From a virus (lineage: Duplodnaviria; Caudoviricetes), in IMG/VR virus record IMGVR_UViG_3300034121_001930, positions 608 to 64,607 of that record: a stretch of 64,000 bases of DNA. One strand, given 5' to 3'. Under the pieces are notes generated by a model. The model was not told the origin of the DNA. It ran no database searches and worked only from the letters and a program-made list of their open reading frames with translations. This document shows, piece by piece, positions 8,882 to 48,489 of the stretch. Position numbers and translations under genes: made by a program. Within the stretch, counting starts at the first letter, position 1. The number at the start of each line of letters is the position of its first letter.

Positions 8882-11125
8882 TTAGCCGACCTGTGTGATG
8901 TTGACTTGCGCTGTCCACTTAATGTTTTTCGATGCTACCCCCGTGCCAACGATTTTGAGCGCGTCGTTGGGATCATCCGCTGTGATGGCGACGGTTGCTG
9001 CCAGCGTTCCCAACACATGATCCGTCCCAATGGTGTCGAGAGACGAAATCGTAACCGCTCCTGCGTTGTTGCCGATCAAGCCGCGTCTAGTGAATGTCTT
9101 AGCGTTAGCCGTTGCTGTTTCTCGCGCAACGACTGTGGCCGTGAACGACCATGTAGAGTTGGCAGGAATGTAGATGCGGTTGAGCACACCCTCTGCAGCT
9201 CCGCCCAATGTAAGTGTGGTTGGTGTGGCGTCGGTTGTCGCCGCTTTGGCTACTATGTCGATGATGCGGGAGAACAGCGAGCCGCCGTGGACTCTGGCGT
9301 AGCTGAGGGCATTGAAATCCGCATAGTAGCCGCTTATCTGGCAGTAAGCGCCGGAGTTGGAGCCGTTATTTCTACCGCTGATCGAGCAGTAGTTGCCAGT
9401 GTTGGAGTGGTTGTTGTAGCCGCTGATCGAGCAGTTGTTGCCGGAGTTGGAGTAGTTGCCATAGCCGCTGATCGAGCAGTAAGCGCCGGAGTTGGTGCGG
9501 TTGCTATAACCGCTAATTGAGCAGCCGTAGCCAGAATTGGTGTGGTTGCTGGAGCCGCTGATCGAGCAGTTGTTGCCGAAGTTGGAGTAGTTGTTTCCGC
9601 CGCTGATCTGGCAACGCGAGCCGGAGTTGGAGGTGTTGGATTCGCCGCTGATCTGGCAGTAGTCGCCGGAGTTGGAGTCGTTGGCGGAGCCGCTGATCTG
9701 GCAGTAGCTGCCGGAGTTGGAGCCGTTGAAGGAACCGCTGATTTGGCAGAGGTTGCCGGAGTTAGAAGAGTTGTTAAAGCCGCTGATCTGGCAGTAGTTG
9801 CCGGAGTTGGAGCCGTTGGAGGAGCCGCTGATCTGGCAGCAGTTGCCGAAGTTGAAGTTGTTGTTGAGGCCACTGATCTGGCAATGTGAGCCGGAGTTGG
9901 AGTAGTTGTCGCGACCGCTGATTAAACCGTAGTTGCCGGAGTTGGTGTGGTTGAAACGACCGCTAATTGAGCAGTTGGAGCCGGAGTTGGAGTAGTTAGC
10001 GCGCCCGCTAATCGAGCAGTTGGAGCCGGAGTTGGAATTGTTGTTGAAACCGCTGATTGAGCAGTAGCTACCAGTGTTGGAGAAGCTGCTGAAACCGCTG
10101 ATAAGGCTGTCAACGCCAGTGTTCGCACCACTAGCTGTCGGGTTAGACGTGCCTATGACTACAATTCCTCCGCCTTCGGCCTTAATCGTATCTATGGCGT
10201 GAACGTGGTCAGCGCGCGCATATTTTAGGGACGTGCCGACAGCGGCAGTTCCGATGGCGGCTGGTGTCGTAGTGGATACCTGCCCGATAACGTAGGCCGT
10301 GGTAGCAATCTGTGTCGTGTTCGTATCGACAGCCGCCGTAGTCGAAAGTGGTACACCTGTAAATGTCGGGCTGGATAGGTTAGACTTTAGATCGAGTGCC
10401 GCTGCTGTGACATAGTCGGTTCCCGCGACCGCCTGAGACACGACTGAGCCGTTGCCCTTGATGATGCCAGTAATGTTTGTTGTCGTCGATGTCGTGACAG
10501 AGTTCGGGCCAGTAGCTCCTTGGATTCCTTGAATTCCTTGAACTCCTTGAGTCCCTTGAGGTCCTTGAATTCCTTGTGGGCCTACTGCACCGACTGCACC
10601 AGAAAGATTTACGGACCATGAAGAATAAGTACCGCTGCCATCAGTATCTGTAACTACAGCGACCATTACACCCGTAGTTGGATTATAGGAATCAATCTCA
10701 GCGTGGATATGGTTGCCAATATCGTGAGAGATAAGAACGTTCTGGTTTGTGCTGTATGATAAACCAGTTCCGACAGTAATAGTAATCGTAGAACCAATTG
10801 CTGGTATAAGAAGATTTGTTGACGAAGTAGTCTGATACTTATCACCAGCTAACCCTTGAGGGCCTTGAATACCTTGAATGCCTTGAACTCCTTGCGAGCC
10901 AGTTGCGCCAGTATTTCCTTTTGGCAGAGTTAGACTCAGTACTTGCGAAGGGCTAGAGCCAGTAATGTTAGCCGCTGCTGGTACATTACTTTCGACAGTT
11001 GTTACTGTACCAATCGATAGAACATTAGATGGTCCAGCTGGACCAGCTGATCCGCTCAATGACAATTGAAGCTCAGTGCCTTCAACTACGGATAGCTTAT
11101 ACTTTGATGTTTCGTTAGAGGCCAT
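8882..11125 (-). CDS. Tail fibre/spike with collagen-like G-X-Y repeats and a 13-aa repeat solenoid
   Basis: GxQGxQ tracts and about 20 tandem NSGxxC(S/Q)ISGxxN repeats. Confidence 0.8.
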   Translation of the reverse strand: MASNETSKYKLSVVEGTELQLSLSGSAGPAGPSNVLSIGTVTTVESNVPAAANITGSSPSQVLSLTLPKGNTGATGSQGVQGIQGIQGPQGLAGDKYQTTSSTNLLIPAIGSTITITVGTGLSYSTNQNVLISHDIGNHIHAEIDSYNPTTGVMVAVVTDTDGSGTYSSWSVNLSGAVGAVGPQGIQGPQGTQGVQGIQGIQGATGPNSVTTSTTTNITGIIKGNGSVVSQAVAGTDYVTAAALDLKSNLSSPTFTGVPLSTTAAVDTNTTQIATTAYVIGQVSTTTPAAIGTAAVGTSLKYARADHVHAIDTIKAEGGGIVVIGTSNPTASGANTGVDSLISGFSSFSNTGSYCSISGFNNNSNSGSNCSISGRANYSNSGSNCSISGRFNHTNSGNYGLISGRDNYSNSGSHCQISGLNNNFNFGNCCQISGSSNGSNSGNYCQISGFNNSSNSGNLCQISGSFNGSNSGSYCQISGSANDSNSGDYCQISGESNTSNSGSRCQISGGNNYSNFGNNCSISGSSNHTNSGYGCSISGYSNRTNSGAYCSISGYGNYSNSGNNCSISGYNNHSNTGNYCSISGRNNGSNSGAYCQISGYYADFNALSYARVHGGSLFSRIIDIVAKAATTDATPTTLTLGGAAEGVLNRIYIPANSTWSFTATVVARETATANAKTFTRRGLIGNNAGAVTISSLDTIGTDHVLGTLAATVAITADDPNDALKIVGTGVASKNIKWTAQVNITQVG
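9325..10110. repeat. 39-bp coding tandem repeat (about 20 degenerate copies)
   Basis: Recurring CCGCTGATC(T/G)..GCAG...GCCGGAGTTGGAG with 39-nt period. Confidence 0.85.
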
Positions 11126-19628: not shown

Positions 19629-20234
19629 TTACAAAAATGGCACTGTGTGTCCGATATTTTTTACAATCTTGGTCACGTGCTCGACAAAATATTCAAAGCT
19701 ATTAGTGCCTTTGGATATATTGCAGACTCTGCAGCACGGCACGCAGTTGTCATAATGGTACCCAATATTGTTGTGCAGGCGGTCAATGCCCCAACTTTTG
19801 TCTGTTTCTGGGCTCTGGCCGCAGAAAAAACACGGGGCCCCGTACATATCCTTGAGCTCGTCTGGTGTTAGCGTGTTTAAAATGCCGCGGCTCTTTGCGC
19901 CCGAAGTGTTCCGGCTCACCCATTTCCTGAATCGCGCCTCGAAGCTAGTTCTTGCTGCGCGTGTGAATATACGCATTGCGGGCGTCGTCGCTTTCCTCCG
20001 CCTATTGTACTCGTGCAGCTGTTCTTTTTTAGCCCAGAACATACCGCCTTTGCTCTTAATATTGTACTGGAAGAACGCCTTTCCGTTGTAAACTTCGTGC
20101 CTCGTTAACCGCGTTTGTGGGTTGTCTGTAAGCCACTGCTTAAGTCTATCCCATTCTTGGATCGTTAACGCCCGCCCCAGTTCTGGTGCAAAGCCTGCAC
20201 GCCTGTGCGCTTTAATTTTCGCCTCGGTGTCCAA
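19629..20234 (-). CDS. HNH endonuclease
   Basis: CFFCG...GIDRLHNNIGYHYDNCVPCCRVCN motif. Confidence 0.8.
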   Translation of the reverse strand: MDTEAKIKAHRRAGFAPELGRALTIQEWDRLKQWLTDNPQTRLTRHEVYNGKAFFQYNIKSKGGMFWAKKEQLHEYNRRRKATTPAMRIFTRAARTSFEARFRKWVSRNTSGAKSRGILNTLTPDELKDMYGAPCFFCGQSPETDKSWGIDRLHNNIGYHYDNCVPCCRVCNISKGTNSFEYFVEHVTKIVKNIGHTVPFL

Positions 20235-20660
20235 ATCTCGAGTACTCTATCATTTTTCGTGGCCTCATAAAGGAAAAAATTTTTTTCTCAAGGGGGGATA
20301 TATACATACACGACTCTTGAAAAAAAGTGTGACCCCCACCAGTAGCCTCGCGCCCGCGCGCACGCCCGCCGCGCCCGCCTCAATTCGCGCGCGTGCCCGC
20401 CCGTATTGTATGTACATTGTCGGTACATTGTACCCACATTCTGGCCGTGGAACATTCCCGATCAGCTCGCGCCGTGGAACATGACGCTGGAACCTGCATA
20501 AACACTAGGACTCCGCATTATGTTTTATTGTTACAAGTACTGGTGATTCTGGTCTCTGGCCTCTGGAATCAGGAAGCAAGGGGCACGCAGACCGCTTGGG
20601 GTCCTGCGCGTCTCGAGCCCCGGGGCTTGTGTCGGTCGCACCTCCCCCGTTGCAAGGCGT

Positions 20661-20719
20661 CCTGCATCCTGCATCCTGCATCCTGCTTCCGGTTGCAAAG
20701 CATCCTGCATCCTGCATCC
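20661..20719. repeat. (CCTGCAT)n heptamer repeats
   Basis: Four copies (one variant) plus two further copies. Confidence 0.9.
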
Positions 20720-20813
20720 GGTTGGCTGGTGGTTGGCTGGTGGTTGGCTGGTGGTTGGCTGGTGGTTGGCTGGTGGTTGGCTGGTGGTTGGCTGGTGGTT
20801 GGCTGGTGGTTGG
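20720..20813 (+). repeat. (GGTTGGCTGGT)x8 tandem repeat, containing eight GCTGGTGG octamers
   Basis: Eight exact 11-mers, 20720-20807, each followed by GG. Confidence 0.95.
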
Positions 20814-20866
20814 TACACGCCGCCGGAACGCTACACTAGGCGAGTGTAGTTTTGGCGCTGGGTATT

Positions 20867-20929
20867 GGTTGCTGGTTGCTGGTTGCTGGTTGCTGGTTGC
20901 TGGTTGCTGGTTGCTGGTTGCTGGTTGCT
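20867..20929 (+). repeat. (GGTTGCT)x9 tandem repeat
   Basis: Nine exact heptamers. Confidence 0.95.
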
Positions 20930-21133
20930 GGGCGCAGGAAAGTTGCACGAAATGCAACCATCCTGCTATGCTCTGGCAGTGTATACAAAACGACATTTCA
21001 GCCAACTACTAGGCTCCTAGTAGTTCGCAGAAAAGCGTATACATTTCATCTTTTCGACACTTTCTTGAAAAATATTTTCGGGGTCAATACGCTATAAAAC
21101 AAGGGGTTTCGCGCTACTCTGCAAACTTTCCCG

Positions 21134-21172
21134 AAAAAAAGTTGGTGACAAGTTCGGGGCCCAATGTATGGT
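21134..21172 (+). promoter_or_regulatory. Candidate early promoter of the ribozyme-punctuated operon
   Basis: A7 tract, then GTGACA (21145)-16 nt-TATGGT (21167). Confidence 0.45.
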
Positions 21173-21306
21173 CGTTCTCGTTGGCCGCAAGGTCACCCAC
21201 AAAAGCGGATCGGCCGCCGCCCCAGCACGGGGTCCGGCGGCGAGCTCCAAGCGGTGGTCCAGCTCTTTCCCAGTCCCCGATCTCCGGCCCGCAGTGTAAC
21301 GGGCCA

Positions 21307-21395
21307 TGGTGCAATGCCACCACCGCGAACAAGCCTGCAATGGTTGCAAGCCGCGCGGTGCCAGTCCCAAGTCTGGCCCAAGGCAGAGGGCACCA
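21307..21395 (+). ncRNA. Twister ribozyme, type P1; predicted cleavage C21312|A21313
   Basis: P1 TGGTG/CACCA; L1 CAA and GAGGG; P2 TGCC/GGCA; P3 CACCGCG/CGCGGTG; P4 CCAG/CTGG with loop TCCCAAGT; pseudoknots CCC:GGG and AC(21319-20):GT(21371-72), the latter a compensated variant of the usual GC:GC. Confidence 0.85.
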
Positions 21396-21400
21396 AAAAA

Positions 21401-22081
21401 ATGAGAACGGAATACGAATTGAATATCGGTTTGCTGGTCGAAAAGACTGGCAAAAGAATCATCCGCCAAGACGCCGCCGCCGCGCTCGCCGCGACTGGTT
21501 TTGAAGCACACGCTTCAATCCTGCATGAAGGCGAGTGGGAAGGCCAGCCGCAACCCACGCTGGTGGTCGTTGGCTTTGCTCCCGCCAATTGGAGCGCGGA
21601 CGCCTTGGCCGACGAGCTCCAGCAGGACAGCATCGCTGTCCTCGAGGTGGACGCCAACCACGGCCGCTTGGATGGCCCAAACCCGCAAAACTACGGGTTT
21701 GACCACAGCCTGTTCACCACCTTCGAGCAGGCCGTGGACGCCGAATGCGAACGCCGCAAACGCATCGCCTTGGTAGACCTCGAGCACGCCCGCTTGTTCG
21801 AGGCCGCCAAGGCCAAGGACGCCAGTGACAAGGCGTTCCTTGCCGCGGTGACGCCCCCCAAAGAAAAGACCAAGCAGGTGCACACTTTCAAGGGATTCAC
21901 CCTCGAGCTCGAGTACGACGGCGACACATTGTATGCCGACATTTCGCACGGCGACTTCGCGGGCTCGCTAGCGTTCGCGGAGCACAACGGCTACATTGAC
22001 GATGGCGAGGATGGCAAGCGCAAGCGCGTGCCACAGGAGGTCATCGAAAAGTTCTGGGAGCTCGAAGCAAACTTCGCCTGA
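21401..22081 (+). CDS. SAM-lyase-like (T3 SAMase/Svi3-3-like) protein with an acidic C-terminal extension
   Basis: ATG 5 nt after the twister; LNIGL...GEWEGQPQPTLVV...LADELQQDSIAV pattern; the stop is the UGA of hammerhead 1. Confidence 0.55.
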   Translation: MRTEYELNIGLLVEKTGKRIIRQDAAAALAATGFEAHASILHEGEWEGQPQPTLVVVGFAPANWSADALADELQQDSIAVLEVDANHGRLDGPNPQNYGFDHSLFTTFEQAVDAECERRKRIALVDLEHARLFEAAKAKDASDKAFLAAVTPPKEKTKQVHTFKGFTLELEYDGDTLYADISHGDFAGSLAFAEHNGYIDDGEDGKRKRVPQEVIEKFWELEANFA

Positions 22082-22134
22082 TGAGGCCCTTGGCAAGGGC
22101 CGAAACCCTGCCCCCGCAGGGTCGCGGAAGCCAA
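22072..22134 (+). ncRNA. Hammerhead ribozyme 1 (type I); cleavage after C22123
   Basis: CTGATGA (22078); stem II GGCCCT/AGGGCC; GAAA; stem III ACCCTGC/GCAGGGT; GTC; stem I CTTCGC/GCG(G)GAAG. Confidence 0.93.
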
Positions 22135-22152
22135 CCAATCCGCCCAACAAAA

Positions 22153-22317
22153 ATGAACAACATTGACACAACCATTGCCGTGGCCACCAATTGCGTGGCC
22201 GAATTGCTAGCCCTCGCGAGCGGACTCATTGACGACCTTGAATCCTTCGGGTCCGAATGTGGCGACGACTACAGGGCCGAACTTCAGAACATTGTGGACA
22301 GATTCAACGCCGCCTGA
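22153..22317 (+). CDS. Small acidic early protein (54 aa)
   Basis: MNNIDTT...RFNAA; fills the interval between hammerheads 1 and 2. Confidence 0.7.
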   Translation: MNNIDTTIAVATNCVAELLALASGLIDDLESFGSECGDDYRAELQNIVDRFNAA

Positions 22318-22382
22318 CGAGGCCCCGTCGCAAGGGCCGAAACGGCCAGCCCCTTCGGGGCGCTGGTCGTCGCGGAAGCCAA
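22310..22382 (+). ncRNA. Hammerhead ribozyme 2 (type I); cleavage after C22371
   Basis: CTGACGA (22314); stem II GGCCC/GGGCC; GAAA; stem III ACGGCCAGC/GCTGGTCGT capped by a CTTCGG loop; GTC; stem I CCGC/GCGG. Confidence 0.93.
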
Positions 22383-22402
22383 CCAATCCGCTCCAACCAA
22401 CA

Positions 22403-22822
22403 ATGAGCCAAACGCAATTCCAAAATCGTAGACAAGCAACCAATCACCCGTACCGCCCCTGCTCCGCGCTTAAGAGCCGCGGTGGCCTAGTCATCCACTC
22501 CGCCGCCCAGCGGTCCACTTGGTTCCTGCACCCCAGAATTAACGCTGACGCTTACCAAAGCGGCCTGCGCTGGGCCTGTAGCAGAAGCCAACGAGCCGCC
22601 GACGCGTGGATCGAGCAGGTGGCCGTTGGCCACGCGCTCGAGTGGGCAGAGCACGCGGCGCTGTCCGCGCTGTTCCCTAGCTGGCGGTTCCGGTTCACCG
22701 GAGCGACTGGGCAGGGCTCCGGTGTTCATTGGACCGCCAGCCGCAAGAGCGGTGGGCTGGTCGAAAGTATAGCAGGCACAAGCGCCGCGCACATAGCGCG
22801 CCGCCTGCGCCAAGCCGCCTGA
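22403..22822 (+). CDS. Hypothetical early protein (139 aa)
   Basis: MSQTQFQ...LRQAA; starts after the conserved leader and stops in the core of hammerhead 3. Confidence 0.65.
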   Translation: MSQTQFQNRRQATNHPYRPCSALKSRGGLVIHSAAQRSTWFLHPRINADAYQSGLRWACSRSQRAADAWIEQVAVGHALEWAEHAALSALFPSWRFRFTGATGQGSGVHWTASRKSGGLVESIAGTSAAHIARRLRQAA

Positions 22823-22873
22823 TGATGGCCGTGTGGCAACGGCCGAAACCCCGCAAGGGGTCGCGGAAGCCAA
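22815..22873 (+). ncRNA. Hammerhead ribozyme 3 (type I, extra U after A9); cleavage after C22862
   Basis: CTGATGA+T (22819); stem II GGCCGT/ACGGCC; GAAA; stem III ACCCC-GCAA-GGGGT; GTC; stem I CCGC/GCGG. Confidence 0.92.
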
Positions 22874-22893
22874 ACCAATCCGCTCCAACAACA

Positions 22894-23226
22894 ATGAAAA
22901 AATACGACTGGTCAATCCCCGTGCGCGACTTTCTCCGCACGGCCAAAAAACACGGGCTCGAGCCTGTTGCTGTAGACAACGGCGACGGCTGGGTCAGCAC
23001 CTCCGCCATCGCGATTGCGGTGGACGAAATAGCCGCCACCGACGAAAGCCATGTGCGGTTCACCCACACCGACGGCTCGCGCGTCACTGCGTACATCGTC
23101 CTTGGGAACGAACCCGCAGAGCTGGTGGCGGACTACACGATCCACCCCGCGCTTGACGCGGCCACCGATGAGCACTACAACAACTGGGAAGGCAAGCCCT
23201 GCCCGACAACCACCACCGAACAATGA
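22894..23226 (+). CDS. Hypothetical early protein (110 aa)
   Basis: MKKYDWSIP...IVLGNEPAELVADYT; starts after the conserved leader. Confidence 0.7.
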   Translation: MKKYDWSIPVRDFLRTAKKHGLEPVAVDNGDGWVSTSAIAIAVDEIAATDESHVRFTHTDGSRVTAYIVLGNEPAELVADYTIHPALDAATDEHYNNWEGKPCPTTTTEQ

Positions 23227-23330
23227 AACTACCACCAGAGCCCCCGCTGTGGCTAGGCGCATGCCTTGCCGCCCTCTTCGGGGCCGCCTTCGTAGCGGCC
23301 GCAATCCTATTCCACTACCTAGTATCGTGA
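23223..23330 (+). CDS. Small membrane peptide (35 aa)
   Basis: MKLPPEPPLWLGACLAALFGAAFVAAAILFHYLVS; ATGA and GTGA overlaps on both sides. Confidence 0.55.
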   Translation: MKLPPEPPLWLGACLAALFGAAFVAAAILFHYLVS

Positions 23331-23482
23331 AGCCTGCACCCTTCGCCTGTAGCGAGTGTGGTAGCCGCTGGTGGCCTGACCCAGACAGCAGTTGTCCGGC
23401 CTGCCAGCCAAGCCACACGCACGATCCAGACTACGACGAGCTACCGCCCGACCCGTACGATGAAATCGAACCCGAACCCTGA
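23327..23482 (+). CDS. Small Zn-ribbon protein with an acidic tail (51 aa)
   Basis: CSECG...CPAC; the GTG overlaps the previous stop. Confidence 0.55.
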   Translation: MKPAPFACSECGSRWWPDPDSSCPACQPSHTHDPDYDELPPDPYDEIEPEP

Positions 23483-23493
23483 ATCCTGAAAAT

Positions 23494-23712
23494 ATGAAAG
23501 CATACCTGCTAAAAGACTACTGCGGGCAAGGCCCGCGAATCGTTGTTCACCCGCGCGGCTTGCCGCCCAGCTGGACAGAATCCGGTCTCACGGCCGAGCA
23601 AGAAGAGCAAGCGCAACACAGCGCGTGCAAGCTGGGCCCAGAGTTCCGCAACTATGTGTTGCACTTCGACCCAGAGACACTGGAGCACCTTGACAGCTTC
23701 AAGGTGCGCTGA
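23494..23712 (+). CDS. Hypothetical early protein (72 aa)
   Basis: ORF ends 7 nt before the core of hammerhead 4. Confidence 0.65.
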   Translation: MKAYLLKDYCGQGPRIVVHPRGLPPSWTESGLTAEQEEQAQHSACKLGPEFRNYVLHFDPETLEHLDSFKVR

Positions 23713-23715
23713 ACC

Positions 23716-23784
23716 CCGCCTGATGATGGCCGTGTGGCAACGGCCGAAACCAATCCGCTCCGGCGGTGCGGTCGCGGAAGCCAA
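23716..23784 (+). ncRNA. Hammerhead ribozyme 4 (type I, extra U); cleavage after C23773
   Basis: CTGATGA+T (23720); stem II GGCCGT/ACGGCC; GAAA; stem III ACC/GGT plus CCGC/GCGG; GTC; identical to hammerhead 5. Confidence 0.88.
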
Positions 23785-23801
23785 CCAATCCGCCCAGAAA
23801 T

Positions 23802-24173
23802 ATGAATACATTAGTCACACTAAATATTGGCCTGCTTGTCGATAAGACTGGCAGGGAAATCAGCCGCACCGAAGCCGCACAGGCGCTAATCGAGCACGGC
23901 GTCGAGCCCATCATCAGCCTCCTTCACGAGACGCAGTGGGGTGATAAACCCCAGCCGACCCTCGTGGTCTTCGCGGAGGTCCCCCGCAACTGGACGGCCG
24001 ACGCGCTGGCCGACACGCTCGAGCAGGACGCCATAGCGGTCCTCGAGCATGGTCCCAATGGCCAAGTTAGGGGTCACTTTGATGGCCGCAACCCCAAAGG
24101 ATGGGGCTTCGACTTAAACGAGTTCGTAAGCTTGGACCAAGCACGCGCCGCGTGCAAAGCATCAGCCGCCTGA
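23802..24173 (+). CDS. SAM-lyase-like protein, paralogue of the 21401..22081 N-terminal domain (123 aa)
   Basis: LNIGLLVDKTG...WGDKPQPTLVV...NWTADALADTLEQDAIAVLE aligns with the first gene. Confidence 0.55.
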   Translation: MNTLVTLNIGLLVDKTGREISRTEAAQALIEHGVEPIISLLHETQWGDKPQPTLVVFAEVPRNWTADALADTLEQDAIAVLEHGPNGQVRGHFDGRNPKGWGFDLNEFVSLDQARAACKASAA

Positions 24174-24234
24174 TGATGGCCGTGTGGCAACGGCCGAAAC
24201 CAATCCGCTCCGGCGGTGCGGTCGCGGAAGCCAA
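24166..24234 (+). ncRNA. Hammerhead ribozyme 5 (type I, extra U); cleavage after C24223
   Basis: CTGATGA at 24170; exact copy of hammerhead 4, 450 nt downstream. Confidence 0.88.
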
Positions 24235-24254
24235 CCAATCCGCACCAACCAACA

Positions 24255-24548
24255 ATGAAAGCAGAAACCTATTATGTCCTGTCAATATCCACTCGCGCGA
24301 ACACCTTTGGCTACTTTGGGGTCATCCTATTGTCGGCCAGCGGTCACGGCGTTGAGGCCCTGTACAGCCCCTACGCTGGCGGGCTTCCGAAAGACCAGCT
24401 CGAGAACGGACTCCCCAAGCGCGGCACCCGCGTGCAGGACCTGTTCCAGCACGGCTTCGTAAGCGCACGGGACCAAGGCCACACGACTCCGGCCAAGGCC
24501 GCGCGCGTTATACAGGCCACCCTGCAACGCGAAAAACAAACCGCCTGA
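24255..24548 (+). CDS. Hypothetical early protein (97 aa)
   Basis: MKAETYYVLS...EKQTA; stops in the core of hammerhead 6. Confidence 0.7.
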   Translation: MKAETYYVLSISTRANTFGYFGVILLSASGHGVEALYSPYAGGLPKDQLENGLPKRGTRVQDLFQHGFVSARDQGHTTPAKAARVIQATLQREKQTA

Positions 24549-24600
24549 TGATGGTCCCTTGGCTGGGACCGAAACGCCGCCTAGGCGTCGCGGAAGCCAA
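24541..24600 (+). ncRNA. Hammerhead ribozyme 6 (type I, extra U); cleavage after C24589
   Basis: CTGATGA+T (24545); stem II GGTCCC/GGGACC (compensatory changes relative to other copies); GAAA; stem III ACGCC/GGCGT; GTC; loop II TTGGCT complementary to downstream AGCCAA. Confidence 0.92.
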
Positions 24601-24619
24601 CCAATCCGCACCAACAACA

Positions 24620-24823
24620 ATGACAAACATCCCGATAAAACTATGCGTTGGAGAATCCTATAGGATTCTACCGCCGCCGCCCAAAGAACGCGTTGAGGGG
24701 GTCTTCTATCCGGTCCGCTTCGGGCGACTGGTCGAGATCTACAGCAACGGCGAGTGCACCCTGCAATGGTACAACCAAGGCGGTTTCTACAAGAGCCACA
24801 TCACCCGCTTAACCCACTACTAA
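24620..24823 (+). CDS. Hypothetical early protein (67 aa)
   Basis: MTNIPIKL...; starts after the conserved leader. Confidence 0.65.
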   Translation: MTNIPIKLCVGESYRILPPPPKERVEGVFYPVRFGRLVEIYSNGECTLQWYNQGGFYKSHITRLTHY

Positions 24824-24826
24824 ACA

Positions 24827-25126
24827 ATGAAAACAGAAACATCACATGTGCTGTCCCTCGAGGACGCTTTCACGCCAACCTATGACCTGTTCCTGCAGGC
24901 CCCGTACAGCGGCAACCACAGGGACTTCGCGCACCAGCGCATACGCAATGGTGACGAGGTCGTCGAGCGCACCTTCTGGGGCCGCGATACCGCCGAGCAC
25001 TGGGTCAATGTTCGCGAAACACGCACCAGCATCCGCGGCCTTGTCCAGACGCTCGAGCAGGCCACCGGAGTCCGCATCATACTTGTGGACGACTTGCCCG
25101 AGGGCATAAGCTACCCAACCGCCTGA
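24827..25126 (+). CDS. Hypothetical early protein (99 aa)
   Basis: Stops in the core of hammerhead 7. Confidence 0.7.
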   Translation: MKTETSHVLSLEDAFTPTYDLFLQAPYSGNHRDFAHQRIRNGDEVVERTFWGRDTAEHWVNVRETRTSIRGLVQTLEQATGVRIILVDDLPEGISYPTA

Positions 25127-25191
25127 TGAGGCCCCGTCGCAAGGGCCGAAACGGCCAGCCCCTTCGGGGCGCTGGTCGTCGCGGAAGCCAA
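25119..25191 (+). ncRNA. Hammerhead ribozyme 7 (type I); cleavage after C25180
   Basis: CTGATGA (25123); otherwise the same as hammerhead 2. Confidence 0.93.
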
Positions 25192-25210
25192 CCAATCCGC
25201 ACCAACAACA

Positions 25211-25456
25211 ATGACAACAACAAAAAGCACTGAAAGAATCATAAGCGAGCTCGTGGGCCGCACTATCCGGTACATCGCGCTCGACTCACAGCAAACCAAT
25301 AACGGCGTACGCGTATTTAAAATCGACCAAGTCAACCGAGTTGCGGTTAGCAAAAAAGGCGTGCGCTACGCGGTGGTACGCGCGTGGGATATTGATGACC
25401 GCGGCGAGCAAAAGTTCCGCTCGCTACACTTGGCCGGAATCGACCTCGTAGTCTAA
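25211..25456 (+). CDS. Small WYL/SH3-fold-like protein
   Basis: VRAWDIDDRGEQKFRSLHLAGI resembles the WYL C-terminal FRxFxLxRI motif. Confidence 0.45.
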   Translation: MTTTKSTERIISELVGRTIRYIALDSQQTNNGVRVFKIDQVNRVAVSKKGVRYAVVRAWDIDDRGEQKFRSLHLAGIDLVV

Positions 25457-25477
25457 TCACAAACCAATAGAAAAACA

Positions 25478-26125
25478 ATGAACACAGAAACAGAAACAGA
25501 AACACCAGTGGCCTATTCACGAGGCCGATTCTACAAGGTCAAGGGCCTTCTTGTGAACGCCCCAATCACGGCGGTCTTGCACCGCTCGGTAACGGGTAAA
25601 GGCTGGGCAGTTACGAGCCCCTATTGCGGGCAGGTAATCGCCAAGGGCCCGACCAAGGCCGCGGCCGAGCAAGCCCTGCTCGAGGTGCTCCAGCAGTTCG
25701 GAATCGAACGGGTCCAAGCGGGCATCCAAAGCGCGCCAGCGGCTCCCGATCCGGCAACGCTGGAATCCCCGCCAGCCCCGCAACGACCCGCTCGCGTAGA
25801 CCGCGACCAGATCGGTCAAATAGTCAAAGCCATTGCCGAACGCGCACAGCTTACCGACTCCGAGATCGAGGCCGTGTGGCGCTCGCTGGCCTCTAACGGG
25901 AAGCACGCGGGCCGCCTGCTATCCAAGCCGCCAGTCTTCAGCGTGGACCCGCTGGCCAACGCCGCGTGGAACGGACTACAGCCCAACCCGTGGAAGGTTC
26001 AACCCACCGCAATCCTGTTCGCCAACGGCAACGCTAAAGATTTGCTGAATAAACTTGCCAAGCATGCTTGGCCAGCCTTTCTTGATCGCGACGCCGCGGC
26101 GCTCAAAGCACTAAATGTTTGGTAA
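25478..26125 (+). CDS. Hypothetical early protein (215 aa)
   Basis: ORF preceded by an A/C-rich leader. Confidence 0.7.
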   Translation: MNTETETETPVAYSRGRFYKVKGLLVNAPITAVLHRSVTGKGWAVTSPYCGQVIAKGPTKAAAEQALLEVLQQFGIERVQAGIQSAPAAPDPATLESPPAPQRPARVDRDQIGQIVKAIAERAQLTDSEIEAVWRSLASNGKHAGRLLSKPPVFSVDPLANAAWNGLQPNPWKVQPTAILFANGNAKDLLNKLAKHAWPAFLDRDAAALKALNVW

Positions 26126-27972: not shown

Positions 27973-30900
27973 TTATTTTGTGTTTAATTTCAAGTACTGC
28001 GGCCTAGCATACACGGCCTCGTTAAGGTACTTCACACGCGCGGCACCGTTCTCTTCTCCGCCAATGCGCAAGTAGTCCTTGTACGCGTCTTCGCTAGGTT
28101 TAAACCTTTCGACCCGACCATAACGCACGGCGTCCTTAAAGCGGCGCTTGCTAATGCCCACATCGTAGGCTTGGCTTTCCATTTCAGCGTAGCTCATTCC
28201 GAGCTTCTCGAATCCGGCCGCGTACTTGTTGAGCCTTTCGTTAATCGCAATCAATGATGTTTCATAGCGATCATAAACTCCGTCCACGCGTTCCTTGTCT
28301 AGCTGCTCGTAGCTCTTAAGCTCGCCAAGAGTTTCTCTGGCCGCGTCCATTTGTTGTTTAAGGTCACCGAACGCGCGTCTTGCCAGCTGTTCTGTTTTAT
28401 TGGTGTGAACGCGGAACGGTTTGAACTCGTTGACCACAAGGTCAGCGGCCTTCTCGAAGCGTGCGTCCTTGTCGTAAACCCCGCCGTTGGTATAAGCCTC
28501 GTAAGCTTTCCAAAACTGGAACGGGGTGCGAAGCTTGTACGCGTTAGTGGCCACATGCTTCAGGGTCTTGCCGACTTTGGTTCCCCATGAATCGTCCTCC
28601 AACCACAGCGCACCGCCGCGGTCGTCTCTATTCATACCGGCCTGCGCGAAAGCCTCCACTGCAATCTGCGGGCTCAGGAAACTCTTTGCCAAGGACGAAG
28701 CCATGACCCCCGGTATTTTCTCCCAGCGGCCATTGACTGCATGATGAATGCTGCGGCCGACGGCGTCTGTGATTGGACTAAATCCGTTAATGTAGGTGAG
28801 ATCCCATGTTGTTACTGATTTGTCCGCTGGGTCTGATGTAATGAACAAGTTGGAATCGCGTGCCCAAGGCGGCTGAGCAGCCCGAACACCTTCTTCTTCC
28901 TCGTCTTCGACCTCAAACATTTCTTTCAGCAGGGCCGGAGCACCATACCCAAGGACAGAAAGGGTAGTGCCGAGTCCAATTAGTCTGTTACGGCCCCTCG
29001 CCACGAGCACTGGGTTTCCGCTCTTCACTTCGTCTACTCCGAGCTGGATCGTCGCGATTGGAAGGCGGAACATTTCTGCGGTGAAGCGGAAGAAGCTGTT
29101 GAACAGCATGCCAAGCCCGCTGCGTTGGAACTCTTTAGCAATCGGAGCCACACGCTCGCGGCCCTGTGTGGTAAGCCTGACAACACGCGCCGCCTCCTGC
29201 TTAATTTGCTGTGGTGTTAGCGGAACGCTCCTGTACTTGTTAGCTTTGGTCTGCACATCAATTTCGTGCGCCCAGTAAGCGGCCTTGTAGAGCATATCAA
29301 TTTGATCGTTAAGGGTTGCAAGACCATCGACTGTAACCTTCGCGCCCTTCCACGCCTTGGCAAGGAAGTTGCCCGGGGTACCGACCTCTTTGAGCATAGA
29401 CTCAATCTGATTTGTAATCAGTTCAGGGTCGTCAATTGTTCCGCGGATAAAGTCGCGCATAGTTTGTGTAACCATGCTGCCTTCGGAGATTCCCAGCATA
29501 ACCATATCGGCTCCGAGTCCGTCCATGTCGCGGCCGTACACTTGTTTAATACCTTTAAGCGCTGTAACAATGTTGCTAGGCGTAGGAACAAACCCGTTAG
29601 ACGATGCAAAGATTGGAATACTCACAAGGTTGCGGACAAAGAAGCCAGCGCTTCCCAATGTAAGAAACGCCATACTGGCACCAATTGTTCTGCTAGCACC
29701 AAGCTGTACAAAGTCCCAAACCTTTTTAGCATCGCTACCTTCTGGGGCAGGTGCCGGAGCGAACATAGTTTGGAACGCAGAAACAACTTCGGGCTGCGCG
29801 TAGTACTGGGACAGTGGATCGCCGCCGTTGGTGTCTGTGGTGTTTACTAGCGGAGCGTACCCGCGGTACTTAACTGGATCGTTCTCCACATCTTCGGCGG
29901 TTACAAGCCAGTTGTTGTCGAGACCAAGCTTGGTGTACTGCGTGAGCAGTCTCTGGGTACCAAGAAACTGAGCGAGGTTTCCGTAAGTGCGCAGCGCATT
30001 TTCAATTGGGTTCTGTACCTCGCCAAGCAGCACTCGAAGTTCCGGCGGCACTTCACCTTTCTGCATGAATCTTGTAAGATCAGTGCGGCTGGTTGCTCTT
30101 CCAAATACTTTTGGCGTCGCGCTGTGCTTGTCAATAAACTTGTAGAGCTCGCGCGTTCCAACATCTTTGGAGGCCGCTTCAGCTCGCACAAGCGACATGA
30201 CTTCTGAGTCTGTGTACGGCTCGTACGCAACGTCCTTGCGCCACTGCTCGTATGTGTTATCAATCCACTTTTTCTCAAGGAAGTTACGGGCAAGCGCACG
30301 CTGGTGCGCGAACTCGCTGTCCTCCAGTACGCGTTGCGCGTAGCCTTCGTCCTGATGGATGCGGTAGGTGCGGGTAAGGTAGACTCCAAGATTTTGGTCA
30401 ATAATTGCACGAAGCGGATTACCGGAGCCCAGCTCGTCTGAAAGTTCAGAGCTAAGTTTGTCCACGGCCACGCGGAAATTGGCAATGGCAATTGCAGTTT
30501 TCGGGGAGTTCAACTCCAGCCTAAGCTGCGCTTGCTGCTGCGCCTTGCGCACCGGTGCGAGGTTTTGTGCACGCGCGTCTTGGATATCCTTACTGTACTG
30601 GGCCTCGGCCGCGGCAATTGCTGCGTCCCTTTGCTGAATTTCTGGGCTATTTTTTCTATCAGCGCGGGCCTGCTCAACTTCTGCAGTATACTTTTGTTTG
30701 CTGCGATGAGTCCTATAGTTCACACGCGCCGTATTAACGGCGTCCATGTAAGCTTTGTTTGCCGGGGCCCTGTCAAATACATCGTTAGCCTTGTCAATGC
30801 GTGCGCGCTTGGCCGTTTCTGCAGCGTCGCGTTGCGCCGCGCCTACGGTTGGCTCTGTGCTACCGAGCGCCAAGTTAACGTCGTCCAAGTCTGCGTTTGG

Positions 30901-33900
30901 TTCCGACTTAAGTGCGGCTTGGAACGCTTGCGTAAGATCCTTAAGCCGCGCCTTGGCAAGACGCAGCCCACGCTCTTGGTACTTGGCGGCCTCGAACAAG
31001 CGAGGGTCCATGTTTCCACTGGCGCGGAACAAGCGGCTAACTGGTCCACCCGCGTCCCATTCACCGGTGGCGTTGTTAATAAACAGGTCGTCCAAGCTAA
31101 CCGCGTACGCGCTTTCAACGTCCGGGCTCGTAATAGCATACAGGGCCTTGCTGTAGCGCGGGCTCTTGTCTGTCATATAACCAGTGGCGCGCTCAGCAAA
31201 CTCAGCGTTGCGTACGAATACTCGCGGGCCCACCATAATAGCTTCGGACCCACCGACCACGGCGAGCTTACTGCGCACGTCAACGAAGTCGCTGCTGCGC
31301 ACGGGGTTAAAGCCGACCTCGGTCCAGACTTCTGGATCGTTAATGTCTGCGGGCATCTCGGTAATTGTGGAGATGTTACCCTTTACAGTCGCAAGAGGGA
31401 ACTTGCCGGTACCTGCTGCAATATCACGTGCCTCACCTTTTCCGCTAATAGCACGAACCACCATAGTTGGGTTCGTAATCCGAGCAACACTAGTGTACGA
31501 CAACGGCGCTGCTACACGCGTCGCAGTTTCTGCGGCGGGTTGATGAAGTGTAATCGCATATACCGATTCACCAGCAGCTGTAGATCTGTTGTATGTGGGT
31601 ATATCAATACGGGCTTCAACAACAGTTCTATCGGCTACAGCCACGCCAACTTTATCAACTTTGCTAGCGTCTATGTACTGTTTAATTTTATCAATTGCTG
31701 GAGCGTCCGCAGCCCCTTTGACTTCCCACGGATCAAAGAAGCCAACAAGATCGGCGTATTCATCCACGGTAATTTTACCTTCGATCATTCGCACAGCAGC
31801 TACAGCAAGCTCGGGTGCGTTACGCCGAGCCGTCGCCTTGCCCGCGGCTTTCTCTTCTGCTGGCGTTACCGGTGTAAGGTTTGCTAAGCTCTTGGCTATG
31901 CTGGCTGGTGCGGCCAGCGGCAAGCTAGTGTCACCATCCTTTACCTTGGTTACCTTTTGCTTATTGAACAATACACCAGCTTGGTAAGACGTGCTAACAT
32001 AACCCTTGAATCCTGCATCCTTAACCGCTTTCTCGAGCAGTGTAAGTGCAGCGCGGTTGTCGAACCTAGCGTAGCCAGCCTTCTGCAGGGCGTCTGCGTC
32101 CGGGTACAGGTCTAGTGGATCACGGTCCAAGTCGTACAAGGCATCGCCGTTGACCAGCATGCTGTAGCGGTTGACCCCGACCTGAGTCTCGCGGCGGTAC
32201 TTGCCGTATCCGAAATAGGTTCGCGGCATGTAGATGTCTCCGTACTCGCGGCGGCGCTCGAGTTCTTTACCAGCGCCACCATTACCGTGTTCGCTTGGGT
32301 CTGTCTCCTTAAGCTCGGTGGCCTTGGACCAATGGGTTAGCTGGACCATGCGTCCACGGAAAGCCTTGGGCGCGGTGTCGAGCCCGGCCTTGCTAAGCGC
32401 AATGTTCGCGTTAGTGAAGCCATCCTTAAGCGATGTCGGGCTCCACGCGACCAGCTCGAGCACGTCTCCATTGTTGTCCACAATAATGATTCCGTCGTAG
32501 CCGAGCTTCTGACCCATGGTCTGGAACTGCTTACCTATGTAGCCTTTCTCTTCTAGGATCTTCTCGGTCTTTGCTTCGGCCTTGTCTGGGTCCATGCCAA
32601 GAGCTTGGAATATATTGGCTGGATACGCTTGGCTATACTCAAACACCAATGGATTCTGTAGGCTAACATCGAATACCGAAACGCTACCACCGGTAATGCC
32701 TGCTCCGAGGCTACCCTCGCGCGCATACTTCTTCGCTGAGTCAACGCTTGGCGTGACGTAGTAACCAGATCCCAGAGCGCCTTCCTTGCTCGGACGCAGC
32801 GCACCCACACCCTGCTTGTATGTGCCGCCGTGGAATGCTGTTGTGGAGTACGGCTGGCCAGTTGCGACTATGGCTTTGCTGCGCGCAATACTAAGATTAA
32901 CACCCAAGCGGGTCGCAATTCTTGTATCTTCAATTTCAATATCAGTTACCGTAGGCAAGTTCATTGCGTACGTAATGATTTCCGAATCTGTATACAAGCC
33001 CTTGGTTTGTTTCTTAATGCGGTCAAGAGCTTGAGTACGCAGATCAAACTCAGTTCTAAGCTTGTTTCTGAAGGCCGCGTCAAGATCGTACCAAGCCGCA
33101 TCGGTTTCAACCGGTGAGGTAACAATATCCAAGATGTCATTACCGGCCATATCAGTTTCTCTTTGAAGTTTCTTAGAAACTTCTGCGACTGTAGCAAGAT
33201 CTTGCAAAGCTTTCGGCATATCCGAAATTCGCATATATCTTCCTTGAATCACTGGGATCTCTGACGGATGAACTCGCGCGCCCAAGAACTCTTTGGCTGC
33301 TTTGGACCATGTGTTGCGTCGTTCGCTGTTCGCGAACATAGCCTCGTCATCTTGGGTAATTGCACGGCTGCGGGCAATGCCGACCCCGGCCGGGGCCGGA
33401 CCTTCGGTAACGTCGGCCCAGCTTGGGAAACCAAGACCAAGCTCTTCATTGTTGCTATTGGCCACGGCGGTTGCCAAGTCCTTGCCGTTGGTCGCCATTG
33501 CAAACACTGCGGTCTGCGCTTGCTCCAACGTAATCTCGTTGTTCTGGTACCGGGCCCATACGGCGCGCACACCGTTAACGTTTTCAGACTTACTCTTCCA
33601 TCTGGCCGTGAACAACATACGCACGGCTTCCCAAGTAATGCTTTGCACTTGGCGCGGGAGCATTCCGTACTCAGCGGCGACCGCTCTGTACGCTTCTGCG
33701 AATGCTGGGTAAAGACCACCAACGCCGGTAAGGCTGTCGGTGGCGGTGTTTGCGGTTCCAAAGTTCTGGCCGACCTCGCGGCTGTTGCCGCTGAACGCTT
33801 GCCAGAACAGCGCCGCAATGGCGTGGGTGTCCATGGTCACGTGGCCGTCTGCGTTCTGCGGGTCCACAATGTTATTGTAAAAGCTACGAACCTTGTGCTG

Positions 33901-36900
33901 GTCGCCAAGCTCGTCGCTAATAACTTTCATTTGGGTTTCGGACGGCGCGGTAAGAATACTAATAGCCTTGCCAATGCTGCCGTAGGTTCCCCACGCTAGT
34001 TTGATTTCTTTGGTGACGCCCTTGTTATTGGTGCTTGAGCTAGGCGTACCAAAGCGTCCGTCCGGGCTAACGATTGGGAAGCTAGTGGCGTACTTGGTTT
34101 CAGCACGCATGCGTACAAACCAAGCCTGTTGCTCCGGGCTAAGATCCTTGAGCTTTTTACCTTTTAAGGACTGAAGCCGTTCAAACGCTTGCTGCCTTTT
34201 TGCTTTTACTTTTTCGCTGCCCCAGCCGTGGAACAACAGCATGCCGTTCTCGTCTGTGCGGTGCTCGCCGTTTTCGTCAAGGTCCGGTTTGATCCCCTTG
34301 GCATAACCAATGGTCCCGTCCTTGTTCTCCTTAAGCTCTGGCTCACCGCCGCGCATAAGCCAGCGCGCGCTCATTGCGTCGTCCCATTCGTACTCTTGGT
34401 CCGCGGTCCAGATTTCCATTGTCCGCTTGGCCAGCTCGACGTTCATGAACCAGTCCTTTTGTGGACTGAACACGGCAAGCACACCTGCGCTCTGCTCAAG
34501 GGAGTAGTTGTCCCCGGCGAACTGCTGCGCAATAATGTTTGCGCCGTCGTACCAAAGGTTGGCGATGTCGCGGATATCGCTTGGGAAAACATCCATTAGC
34601 GTGCGCAGGTTGCTCTTGGTAACCTCATTTAGTGTGTTGTAAATCTCGTCTGCTTGCTTGGCGATTGGGTGTTTCGGGTCCTTGGCAATCTTGTCAAGCG
34701 TATCGGTGTACGTCTTGAGCGCCTTGCTGCTGTCTGTTCCAAGAACAGCGCCTTCCGCCTCGTACTTTTTAATCTGGTCTAGGTTCTTGTTGAACTCGGC
34801 CAAGGCCTTATTGCGCGCCCTTGCTTCTTTGTTCCCAGCAATAGTACCGGGCTGCTCCTTGGTAACAAATGCGGACTCAGGATTTTCAATTGCGTCCTCC
34901 AGCATTTTGCCGGACACCTTAGCTTTAGGAACACCAAGATAATTAGCGAATGTTTTCTTAGCTGTATCTTTTGCACCCTTAATCTTAATGCCGTTTGCTT
35001 TTGCTTTGTCCTGCGCTTTAAGAACAGCACCACGGATTTTTGCGTATTCTTTGGCGAGCTTCGGGAACTCGCGAGCAACGATTGGGTACTCGAGCAGAAG
35101 CAGCGCGTTCTTGCGGTACGCTTGCGGGTTGCGCTTCAGTGATGCCAGATCCACCAAGTTGCTCGGGTCGGCACCGTCCTCGGTGGCCTTAGCAGATGTT
35201 GGGTTGCGCGTGCCCACAGCCTTGCCAGCCTTGGTTTGCGCGCGAACCTGTACTGGGTCAATATTAACAGCGGCCCGGCTATAACGCACAATTGGTGCTG
35301 GGCTAGCGGCGCGGCTTGCGAGCTGCATGGTTACCGGACTGATATCCAGCGCGTTGAATTTTTCTGGGGCGTCTGGAAGTCCTGCGCCGTCGCGCAGAAG
35401 GTAACGGTAAAGATCCGCCACTCGGTTTTGCGCGGTGGCCAGCCTTTCGTTATCGCCGTTATTTCGCAGCGCAATGTGGTAGTACGCGGACGCGACGAAC
35501 TGTTTGGCCTGCTCTTTAACCTTAAGCAAGTCCTGCAGATCGGAGTTGGTCAGAGTATTGTAGGCGGCCTGCTCAATAACTGAGTCCGGGCTAAGTCCAA
35601 CCTCTTCAAAACTAAGCTGAATGTCTGGACCGTTTGATCCGTTCGCCAAACCAATAGCAACAGCAAGTCTGGTGTCGAGTTCTTGCAGGTCGCCAGCGTC
35701 TTCAACGTCGTAGGCTTCGTAACGGGCTTCGGCCAGAGCTGGGTTAACAGCAAGGCGTCCGTCAACGAACTGCATGGGCTTGTTAATTTCTCGGTCCTCG
35801 ACAACTTGGAACTCGTCCTGAGCTGCTAGACTTCTTGCGATCTTTGTAACAGGAGCGGCTTGCTGGTCGCCCTTGCTGTACTTGATTCCAGAATCCAGAC
35901 TCGTGTCTAGGTCATATTCAACGCGGATTGTTGTTACGTTGCCGTTGGTGTCCAGCAGCGTACTAAAAAAGTTGTCGTCGGCCCCTATTGGTTGGTTAAG
36001 AGACTCGCCAACGCGCGGGCTATACATGCCATCCTTAAAGTACATTCCTGTGTTGGTTACAACGGAGTCCTGTACAAGCTCATTGGCTGCGTCAACCGCG
36101 TCTTGGTCCGTGAGTCCGGGGACAAGGAAGCTATTCTCGCCGCGGTTATACTTGCCAACAATTGGAATTACTTGGTACCCACGGTCCTTCAGCCACTGGG
36201 TAGCCTTCTTGTTGAACTCCTTGTTTTCTCTTTCGGAGAACTGGGTATCATTGGGGTTCTCCCCGGTAAACATACCGAACCTCTGGTTAACAATAATATC
36301 GTTAATCTCTTCGTTGCTAAGGTCCGAGTAACGCAGCGTTTGCACTTGGTGCAGAATCCACTCAAGGTCGTCACGCGAGTGCGGGTTTGGCACGCCAAAC
36401 AGCGGGCCAACTCTGTTCTCGTGGTTAACACCCGCACGGCTGGCGGCCACTTGCGCAACGGTTCTACCGTACGGGTTTTGTCCAAGCGTTTGGTTTGCGT
36501 TTGACAGATCAGTAATAACTTCGGCCAGCTCTTTGTACTGCTTGCTGGCTACTGGTTGCCCGCTAAACAGGCTTGCAATAAGATCAATAAATTTCTGAAC
36601 AAAGTTTCGTTCGCCCTTGGGGCTAAGCTCGACTAGTTGTTTGCGGAACTTGCTGGACCCATAGAAGTGCGCCACCAATTCACGGGCTCCGTCAACATCA
36701 CTAAACGGTTCAGACAAACTAGCGCGACCTTCCAGAGCGTACCGCAAGTCCGGCGGCATGTTGTCGCCGTACTTTGCGTTAGCACGTTCCGCGTACTCAG
36801 CGCGCAGGGACATAAGCCTGTCGCGCACTTGTTGTTCAAACTCGTTTGCCGGGGCTGTTACAACACGATCTGTAACAGCGTGGCCCAGCTCGTGAAGCAA

Positions 36901-48483: not shown

Positions 48484-48489
48484 ATCTCC

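Follow-up and report, generated by a model that had tools for sequence, protein, structure and literature searches.

The twister class of self-cleaving ribozymes was reportedly described by Roth et al. in 2014, and ribozymes are also placed in 5′ untranslated regions (UTRs) by design, the RiboJ insulator being one such engineered device. Phage ribozyme clusters have been in print since 2011–2014. We analyzed a 64,000-nt stretch of phage DNA (Caudoviricetes; hereafter, the window), comprising bases 608–64,607 of the IMG/VR record IMGVR_UViG_3300034121_001930, in which a very probable type-P1 twister ribozyme stands immediately before the first start codon of a module of small genes and is followed by seven hammerhead-like ribozymes. 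This twister-led array is a new example of a known, functionally unexplained arrangement, and the compensated changes found among its relatives show the twister fold to be under selection. The full record, 64,607 bp long, has direct terminal repeats and is rated 100% complete; the 24 sequencing-run entries that contain the twister stretch are DNA contigs from lake or freshwater metagenomes, with no RNA run among them.

With type-P1 twisters, the phage element has in common the stems P1, P2, and P4, an optional P3, two pseudoknots (T1 and T2), and ends that open in P1, together with an AA after the scissile bond, the GUCCCAAG loop, and a GAGGG strand. It departs from the typical member of the type in its C at −1 (U in two relatives), an A-U/C-G version of T2, a P3 that reaches 40 nt and includes an invariant internal loop, a hairpin directly next to P1, and a score below the Rfam gathering threshold. 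Type-P1 twisters often lie within a few kilobases of hammerheads (Gebetsberger and Micura), as is the case here.

Clustered prophage hammerheads cleave in vitro and in Escherichia coli, and it has been proposed that they cut long phage transcripts into gene-length messenger RNAs (mRNAs); circular or spliced products went undetected in that study, with the data not shown there (Perreault, 2011, PMC3088659). Those ribozymes flank single genes or short blocks of small, varied genes (PMC3088659), as do the ones in the window. The phage array differs in that its first position is held by a member of another class, the twister, which is conserved across relatives, and in its density, with 8 ribozymes in 3.9 kb and an upstream stop codon inside 6 of the 7 hammerhead cores. 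A literature search that did not cover supplements found no description of a twister conserved at the first position of a phage hammerhead array, and closer arrangements may be present in the supplements of Perreault 2011 and Lopez-Galiano 2026. In the haloviruses HF1 and HF2, a hammerhead variant lies just upstream of the first open reading frame (ORF) of an early polycistronic transcript, the mapped 5′ end of which falls within 3 nt of the cut (PMC3088659). The likeness to the window is a leader ribozyme immediately upstream of the point where the first gene starts in a multi-gene viral transcript; the haloviruses are archaeal, use a hammerhead without a downstream array, and have an experimental 5′ end, where that of the phage is predicted.

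Engineered twister and hammerhead devices in E. coli resemble what we propose below, in that cleavage of a ribozyme in the 5′ UTR unmasks the start region. Those devices mask a Shine-Dalgarno (SD) sequence and, in the P1 format, give low absolute expression, whereas the phage element is natural and its genome hardly uses SD sequences. The glmS ribozyme is likewise a bacterial self-cleaving element of the 5′ UTR, and what it does to its mRNA is defined; it differs in requiring a metabolite cofactor and in that degradation follows cleavage, the opposite of the outcome proposed here (Weinberg, 2019). In RNA mycoviruses, ribozyme cleavage in the 5′ UTR enables cap-independent translation (Lopez-Galiano, 2026, PMC13725137). 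The viral 5′ UTR ribozymes in question include twisters, and their cleavage activity is needed for translation initiation, although the hosts are eukaryotic, the genomes are RNA, the effect is a bypass of the cap, and nothing comparable is shown there for bacteria. The roles of bacterial twisters and hammerheads are described as largely elusive, with mRNA processing only suggested (Weinberg, 2019).

What bacterial and phage twisters and hammerheads do has been an open question for over a decade, and the window offers a legible case: a complete genome with one leader twister, seven hammerhead-like ribozymes, and stop codons placed in ribozyme cores. The natural variants of two clades of relatives already supply compensatory mutants, and the hairpin formed after hammerhead cleavage covaries with stem I. 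Something new could lie in three parts of the system: the leader RNA, the P3 loop with its invariant letters, and the start regions that lack SD sequences.

Identity and conservation of the leader twister

A preliminary description of this DNA, made from the sequence without database searches, had proposed a type-P1 twister and named a search with the Rfam twister-P1 model as a check. In that search the family, RF03160, aligned end to end (model positions 1–68) at 21308–21394 on the plus strand, with a score of 45.0 bits and E-values of 4.8e-9 for the 301 nt searched, 1e-6 for the window on both strands, and 2.5e-10 for the genome. Five Rfam matches were obtained at E ≤ 1 in the window, and twister-P1 is the only ribozyme family among them. 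The gathering score for RF03160 is 67.2 bits, a curators' cut-off rather than a structural feature of the class, and because 45.0 bits is below it, a default Rfam scan omits the element: at gathering thresholds the window yields two transfer RNAs (tRNAs) only, and the twister emerges with E-value reporting. The shortfall in score probably stems in part from a 27-nt insert in P3 and from departures from the consensus.

The element spans 21307–21395 from the first to the last P1 pair, as judged from Rfam, covariation, and a minimum free energy fold that recovers P1, P2, P3, and P4, and all of its parts lie on the plus strand. P1 is a helix of 5 bp (21307–21311 with 21391–21395) in which the element ends open, and it is followed by the predicted scissile bond, C21312/A21313, with C at −1 where common twisters have U. 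Next to P2 (21315–21318 with 21382–21385) lies one strand of T2 (A21319-U21372, C21320-G21371), which differs from the Rfam consensus on both sides in a compensating manner (GC/GC to AC/GU, giving A-U/C-G instead of G-C/C-G). The extended P3 (21321–21360, 40 nt) is built of two 7-bp segments, a proximal helix and a distal hairpin, separated by an AACAA/CG internal loop; it is here that the Rfam alignment puts the 27-nt insert, where the consensus has 8. P4 (21361–21363 with 21374–21376) closes the loop L4, GUCCCAAGUC (21364–21373), which supplies CCC to T1 and GU to T2, and T1 itself pairs CCC (21366–21368) with GGG (21388–21390). The GAGGG at 21386–21390, which matches the invariant GAGGG of the Rfam consensus, contains this GGG strand and G21386, the probable catalytic guanine; by our own numbering arithmetic, rather than by a tested alignment, G21386 would be G45 of the 54-nt rice twister. 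A spacer of five A residues (21396–21400) separates P1 from the start codon, ATG, at 21401–21403.

The stems follow the type-P1 order (P1, P2, P4, with ends open in P1), and the core holds the A 3′ of the scissile bond, the next A, the GUCCCAAG loop, the AA before the 3′ strand of P2, and GAGGG. On the strength of its letters and predicted fold, we regard the element as very likely a type-P1 twister ribozyme, if a slightly atypical one. The C at −1 is no obstacle to membership, because the uridine 5′ of the scissile phosphate is less conserved, that position being a non-conserved one, and P1 is dispensable for cleavage (Gebetsberger and Micura). The twister parts listed in the preliminary description were all found where it had placed them, and the peculiarities it had singled out are borne out as well: the C|A step at 21312/21313, the A-U/C-G form of T2, the long P3, and a P1 that ends 5 nt before the ATG at 21401.

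Relatives were found by a search with the downstream protein and by a twister-specific pattern. The same element stands ahead of a homologous gene in 8 other contigs (four IMG/VR records and four metagenome contigs), and the relatives form two clades, the first proteins of which are 75–82% identical between them. RF03160 matches exactly once in the phage's own genome and in each of the four related records (4/4), with 38.1 bits in one of these (L002) and 44.5–45.1 bits in the remaining ones. Distant-mode blastn of 20000–24000 against the phage collection gave no match. In prokaryote genomes, the twister-specific pattern gave 7 matches, which were read by eye without covariance-model scoring, showed no P1/P2 partner strands, and were taken as chance; that search yielded no prophage relative and no host.

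The alignment comprised seven sequences, 6 of them distinct, and the structure was counted with both pseudoknots included, as 31 pairs and 186 cells. Pairing is kept in 97.8% of the cells (100% in P1, P2, and P4), and 12 of the 31 pairs have changed on both sides: 2/5 in P1, 1/4 in P2, 5/7 in proximal P3, 2/7 in distal P3, and 2/3 in P4. The covariation score was reached by none of 500 shuffles, and in a control in which the 3′ partners were slid by 1–3 columns, pairing fell to 20–48%. Covariation in the relatives thereby backs all five nested helices, and T1 and T2 are complementary in all 6 distinct sequences. The letters of the P3 internal loop, AACAA/CG, are identical in 7/7 sequences. L4 is invariant in 5/7; two near-identical contigs, L012 and L013, read GUCCCCAGUC there, and their A-to-C change in the loop is the sole exception to invariance of the core nucleotides in the alignment. 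The same two contigs have U|A at the scissile step, so both C and U at −1 occur within the lineage. A further contig of 980 nt, obtained independently in another study (run X21), has both partners substituted in six pairs of the twister helices (21318/21382, 21321/21360, 21336/21348, 21337/21347, 21362/21375, and 21363/21374); these are the changes of the second clade. The contig's other differences within the ribozyme are 21322 A>G, which gives a G-U pair, 21349 A>G, which mends a mismatch, and several indels.

Leader, first gene, and hammerhead-like array

A sigma-70-like site at 21145–21172 on the plus strand (GTGACA, 16 nt, TATGGT) is the only candidate promoter upstream of the twister; 0.2 such sites would be expected, and 1 was found. 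Its hexamer positions are kept among the aligned relatives while the spacer diverges, and transcription would begin near 21180 if the site is used as its sequence suggests. A conserved structured leader follows (21180–21285, plus strand), marked by an invariant pyrimidine-rich stretch, CUUUCCCAG..CCC. The consensus fold of 21171–21306, built from 6 sequences, has 21 pairs, 7 of which have changed on both sides; this region is conserved in both clades, and the pyrimidine-rich stretch remains unpaired. The leader matches no Rfam family at E ≤ 1, and one of its strings, CCAGUCCC, is identical to part of P4/L4 of the twister. A 6-bp hairpin at 21286–21305 (plus strand) adjoins P1 via a 1-nt linker; in its helix (alignment columns 119–124 with 133–138), 2/6 pairs have changed on both sides between the clades. 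This hairpin is possibly the optional P0 stem of type-P1 twisters, a stem that we take to lie 5′ of P1. P0 is described as an optional stem of the twister (Gebetsberger and Micura).

The first gene (21401–22081, plus strand) encodes 226 amino acids and has its TGA stop inside the CUGAUGA box of the first hammerhead. The start assigned to it in the preliminary description, the ATG at 21401, holds: the N-termini of the first proteins of the relatives align from the ATG after P1, and in-frame stops lie 51–255 nt upstream of the start, at varied places among 7 sequences. In 2/7 of these the stop is 51 nt upstream, which is inside the ribozyme. Because the N-termini align and the stops intervene, the start at 21401 is sound and the 305-amino-acid ORF is no gene; the upstream extension that it represents, to an ATG at 21164, is ruled out by in-frame stops in the 7 sequences. 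The protein matches phrog_11722, a family of unknown function (E 3.9e-6), and no Pfam family. Its 22 homologues are all metagenomic, and of the 7 with a Joint Genome Institute (JGI) name, 6 are called ‘hypothetical protein’.

The first gene and the fifth ribozyme-led gene (23802–24173) are paralogues: each matches phrog_11722, and a 22-nt DNA repeat close to the 5′ end is common to the two. They account for both PHROG matches among the 15 plus-strand module proteins scanned; no other PHROG family and no Pfam family was matched in that set. Matches to PHROG endonuclease/HNH families and to phrog_1233, and a weak SprT-like Pfam match, came from the neighboring minus-strand genes and not from the module.

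One relative, a marine metagenome contig (L014, 2203–2500), has a different gene, of 93 codons, directly behind the twister. There, the homologue of the window's first gene is placed second, with no ribozyme between the two genes. Because this contig keeps the twister with a different first gene, the twister belongs to the module leader rather than to a particular gene. The view that a separate ribozyme class holds the first position, rather than a copy of the hammerhead repeat, gains from this replacement, from the presence of the twister in both clades, and from the count of one twister per record in 5/5 records.

Hammerhead ribozymes are characterized by CUGANGA and GAAA boxes, a cleavage triplet ending in H, and three stems. 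A two-box core pattern matched 7 times in the window, between 22074 and 25200 and always on the plus strand, against 0.39 expected, and 0/100 shuffles reached 7. All 7 copies have both core boxes, a triplet ending in H, three stems, and an open stem I; GUC precedes the predicted cut in 7/7, the cuts falling after 22123, 22371, 22862, 23773, 24223, 24589, and 25180. The TGA stop of the upstream gene is inside the CUGAUGA box in 6/7 copies, and at 23720 it lies 8 nt upstream. By reading, stems II and III differ between copies with complementarity kept, and the relatives carry matching arrays. RF00163 gave no match at E ≤ 10, the sole match of RF03152 (10.5 bits) lies elsewhere and at none of the seven copies, and RF00008 scored a single copy, at 17.1 bits (E 5.4). 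In 4/7 copies the CUGAUGA box is followed by an additional U, which may be behind these misses, and since the Rfam hammerhead models do not score the seven copies, we call them hammerhead-like.

Behind each predicted cut come a 20–21-nt hairpin, an 8–11-nt A/C-rich spacer, and an ATG, and the A+C share of positions −12 to −1 at the hammerhead-led starts is 0.89. The 3′ strand of stem I is used again in the GCGGA..UCCGC hairpin with which the 3′ product begins. Stem I reads CCAC/GUGG in L012 and CCGC/GCGG elsewhere; with the hairpin strand included, one copy at 5061–5160 of L012, and its twin in L013, read CCAC/GUGG/CCAC where all others have CCGC/GCGG/CCGC. Given this three-way compensated change, stem I covaries with the hairpin formed after cleavage. 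UGGC, present in the stem II loop in 5/7 copies, is complementary to GCCA in the conserved post-cut tail, which suggests a tertiary contact. Single hammerheads with a GUC|GCGGAAGCCAA tail are also present in three unrelated viral contigs (L134 at 6983, L135 at 9604, and L136 at 4498 on the minus strand), so the tail marks a wider hammerhead subtype and not this phage alone. A 14-nt pattern for the hammerhead 3′ tail was too short, giving at least 119 stretches that were mostly single chance matches, and a longer pattern replaced it.

Proposed maturation of the first messenger and competing explanations

From these sequence features we consider it moderately likely that a functional type-P1 twister forms the last 95 nt of the first-gene leader and matures the 5′ end of the first mRNA. 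The nascent transcript would self-cleave between C21312 and A21313. The 5′ product would comprise the structured leader, triphosphorylated and ~130 nt long, and the 5′ strand of P1; held to the mRNA by the 5 bp of P1 only, it would leave. The mRNA would begin with a 5′-OH at A21313 inside a compact double-pseudoknot body, and the opened 3′ strand of P1 together with the A-run (CACCAAAAAA, 10 nt) would become an unpaired, A/C-rich spacer before the AUG. In a nested-fold model, removal of the 5′ fragment raises the mean unpaired probability of 21391–21400 from 0.52 to 0.81, a modest gain in accessibility. Consistent with such a body, the 3′ fragment of a twister can retain both pseudoknots, with a 5′ end that is believed to lie buried (Olzog, 2021). 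The resulting format would be that of the hammerhead-led genes (5′-OH, 20-nt hairpin, 8–11-nt A/C-rich spacer, AUG), and by this match the first cistron would be equivalent to the others, every cistron being released as a separate mRNA with a 5′-OH, a structure-protected 5′ end, and an open, SD-free start. The body of a type-I hammerhead stays on the upstream RNA and that of a type-P1 twister on the downstream RNA, a difference that offers a plausible reason for finding a twister at the one position without an upstream gene.

Several observations weigh against this reading. The promoter and start site are placed by a match to the sigma-70 consensus only, and that consensus may not be the host's; because the genome is SD-poor, the host perhaps lacks sigma-70-type promoters. 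The twister scores under the Rfam gathering threshold, and its folding energy is ordinary (z −1.11), with 25/200 shuffles folding equally well. T1 and T2 are invariant among the 7 sequences, and covariation is silent on both. The 12 compensated positions represent essentially one split and, since there are only two clades, few independent events. The A-to-C change of L012 and L013 falls in the conserved L4 loop, where it may reflect either weakened activity or a tolerant position. The folding model behind the gain in accessibility ignores pseudoknots. SD-like motifs precede the most upstream start in 3/45 other ORFs (taken from the longest-ORF list after removal of those in the ribozyme module and of several that overlap), compared with 7.6% at random positions, and precede any start in the first 40 codons in 6/45. 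The engineered precedent in E. coli points both ways: reporter output was 5-fold higher with an active than with an inactive P1-format twister, yet far below that of an unstructured leader; in the P1 format an inhibitory structure remained ahead of the start region, and cleavage in the 5′ UTR as such altered neither expression nor mRNA level (Felletti, 2016, PMC5052635).

The GAGGG strand was considered as a masked SD sequence and set aside on these SD counts. Because the genome hardly uses SD sequences, it is probably the open, G-poor start region that matters, and GAGGG is no masked ribosome-binding site; the phage may infect a lineage that makes little use of SD sequences. Starts are G-poor genome-wide, and a strong AAGGAGGGAGC motif is present at three neighboring ones (49331, 49668, and 49873).

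Maturation of the first mRNA can be extended to a ribozyme-dependent expression system, in which each cistron of the module, the first included, must be cut free for translation, and initiation would be signaled by the 5′-OH, the fold, and the A/C spacer together, the host making scant use of SD sequences. We hold this extension to be doubtful; it would be a bacterial counterpart of the cleavage-dependent, cap-independent translation of RNA mycoviruses. Were cleavage to set the stability or translation of each cistron, a natural twister of a bacterial virus would have a defined function for the first time, and the clustering of different ribozyme classes would be explained too. In a bolder variant, the 5′-OH and cyclic-phosphate ends would be joined by a host RtcB-type ligase into circular mRNAs; no RtcB or Rnl2-type RNA ligase is encoded among the phage proteins.

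The cleavage proposed for the twister has two products, and it could be the upstream one that matters. The twister would then set the 2′,3′-cyclic-phosphate 3′ end of a leader of ~130 nt that, once freed, might act on RNA polymerase as an antiterminator-like leader RNA or serve as a small regulatory RNA, with any effect on the mRNA secondary. That the leader at 21171–21306 is conserved in both clades, with 7/21 pairs changed on both sides and an invariant pyrimidine-rich stretch, fits such a product, as do the covarying hairpin that abuts the cleavage site and the joint retention of leader and twister when the first gene is replaced. Even so, we judge it unlikely, as the leader matches no Rfam family, the post-cleavage format shared with the hammerhead-led genes is better explained by mRNA maturation, and the two roles are compatible rather than exclusive. 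Less likely again is a regulated switch, in which the AACAA/CG loop of P3, or a C-rich stretch of the leader competing for the GGG of T1, would tune cleavage and module expression. No ligand or protein is known for it, and the invariance of the internal loop in 7/7 sequences while both flanking helices covary could equally reflect a tertiary contact that speeds folding. The identity of the leader string CCAGUCCC to part of P4/L4 would suit a competing strand, but the similarity is weaker in the second clade. Engineered switches can control twisters through extra domains, and regulation of natural ones has been suggested (Felletti, 2016, PMC5052635).

The remaining explanations concern activity and identity. 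In a decayed or very slow twister, the fold would be kept by recent descent and act only as a structure in the 5′ UTR, with the C at −1, the A-U in T2, the shortened J4-2 of one clade, and the large P3 insert jointly lowering activity. The score under the Rfam cut-off and the several departures from consensus would be expected of such an element, and some predicted ribozymes fail to cleave when tested (Olzog, 2021). Twelve compensated pairs and the conserved core letters kept across the clades point instead to selection on a catalytic fold, the T2 change is itself compensated, and −1 is the non-conserved position, which together make decay highly improbable. Chance resemblance in a GC-rich intergenic region might be suggested by a folding energy no better than that of shuffles and by the weak twister-P1 matches at E ≤ 1 in 2/14 control genomes, but this explanation is effectively refuted by the full-length match to the model at a window E of 1e-6, the covariation, and the element's presence at the corresponding place in 8 other contigs.

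Genome surroundings of the module

A crude map of longest ORFs places the twister in a divergent intergenic region (21006–21400), between minus-strand genes at 638–21005, which include tail-fibre-like proteins, and the plus-strand module of small ORFs, which runs from 21401 to ~27579 and lies ~22 kb from the left end of the record. The same map shows a large terminase on the minus strand and a block containing DNA polymerase on the plus strand. The ribozyme module is the GC peak of the genome, at 0.60–0.62 in the part of the window from 22001 to 26000 against 0.38–0.57 elsewhere, and AT skew is strongly positive across the same interval. Beyond the module, a single ORF of 4371 amino acids (27973–41088, minus strand) has phrog_3842, of unknown function, as its sole PHROG match; it matched no PDB sequence, and its product, perhaps a virion RNA polymerase, could be a giant virion or injected protein. 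The two tRNA genes are adjacent (48416–48561, plus strand; 34.8 and 59.9 bits in Rfam), and the first of them has a shortened D-arm region in the Rfam alignment. Repeats mark two of the minus-strand genes. The gene divergent from the twister (20505–21005) contains ten copies of an 11-nt unit within 20709–20937, of which 8 are in tandem at 20709–20829 and 2 more diverged ones lie at 20862–20937, and a tail-fibre-like gene contains 15 tandem 45-nt units at 9238–10167.

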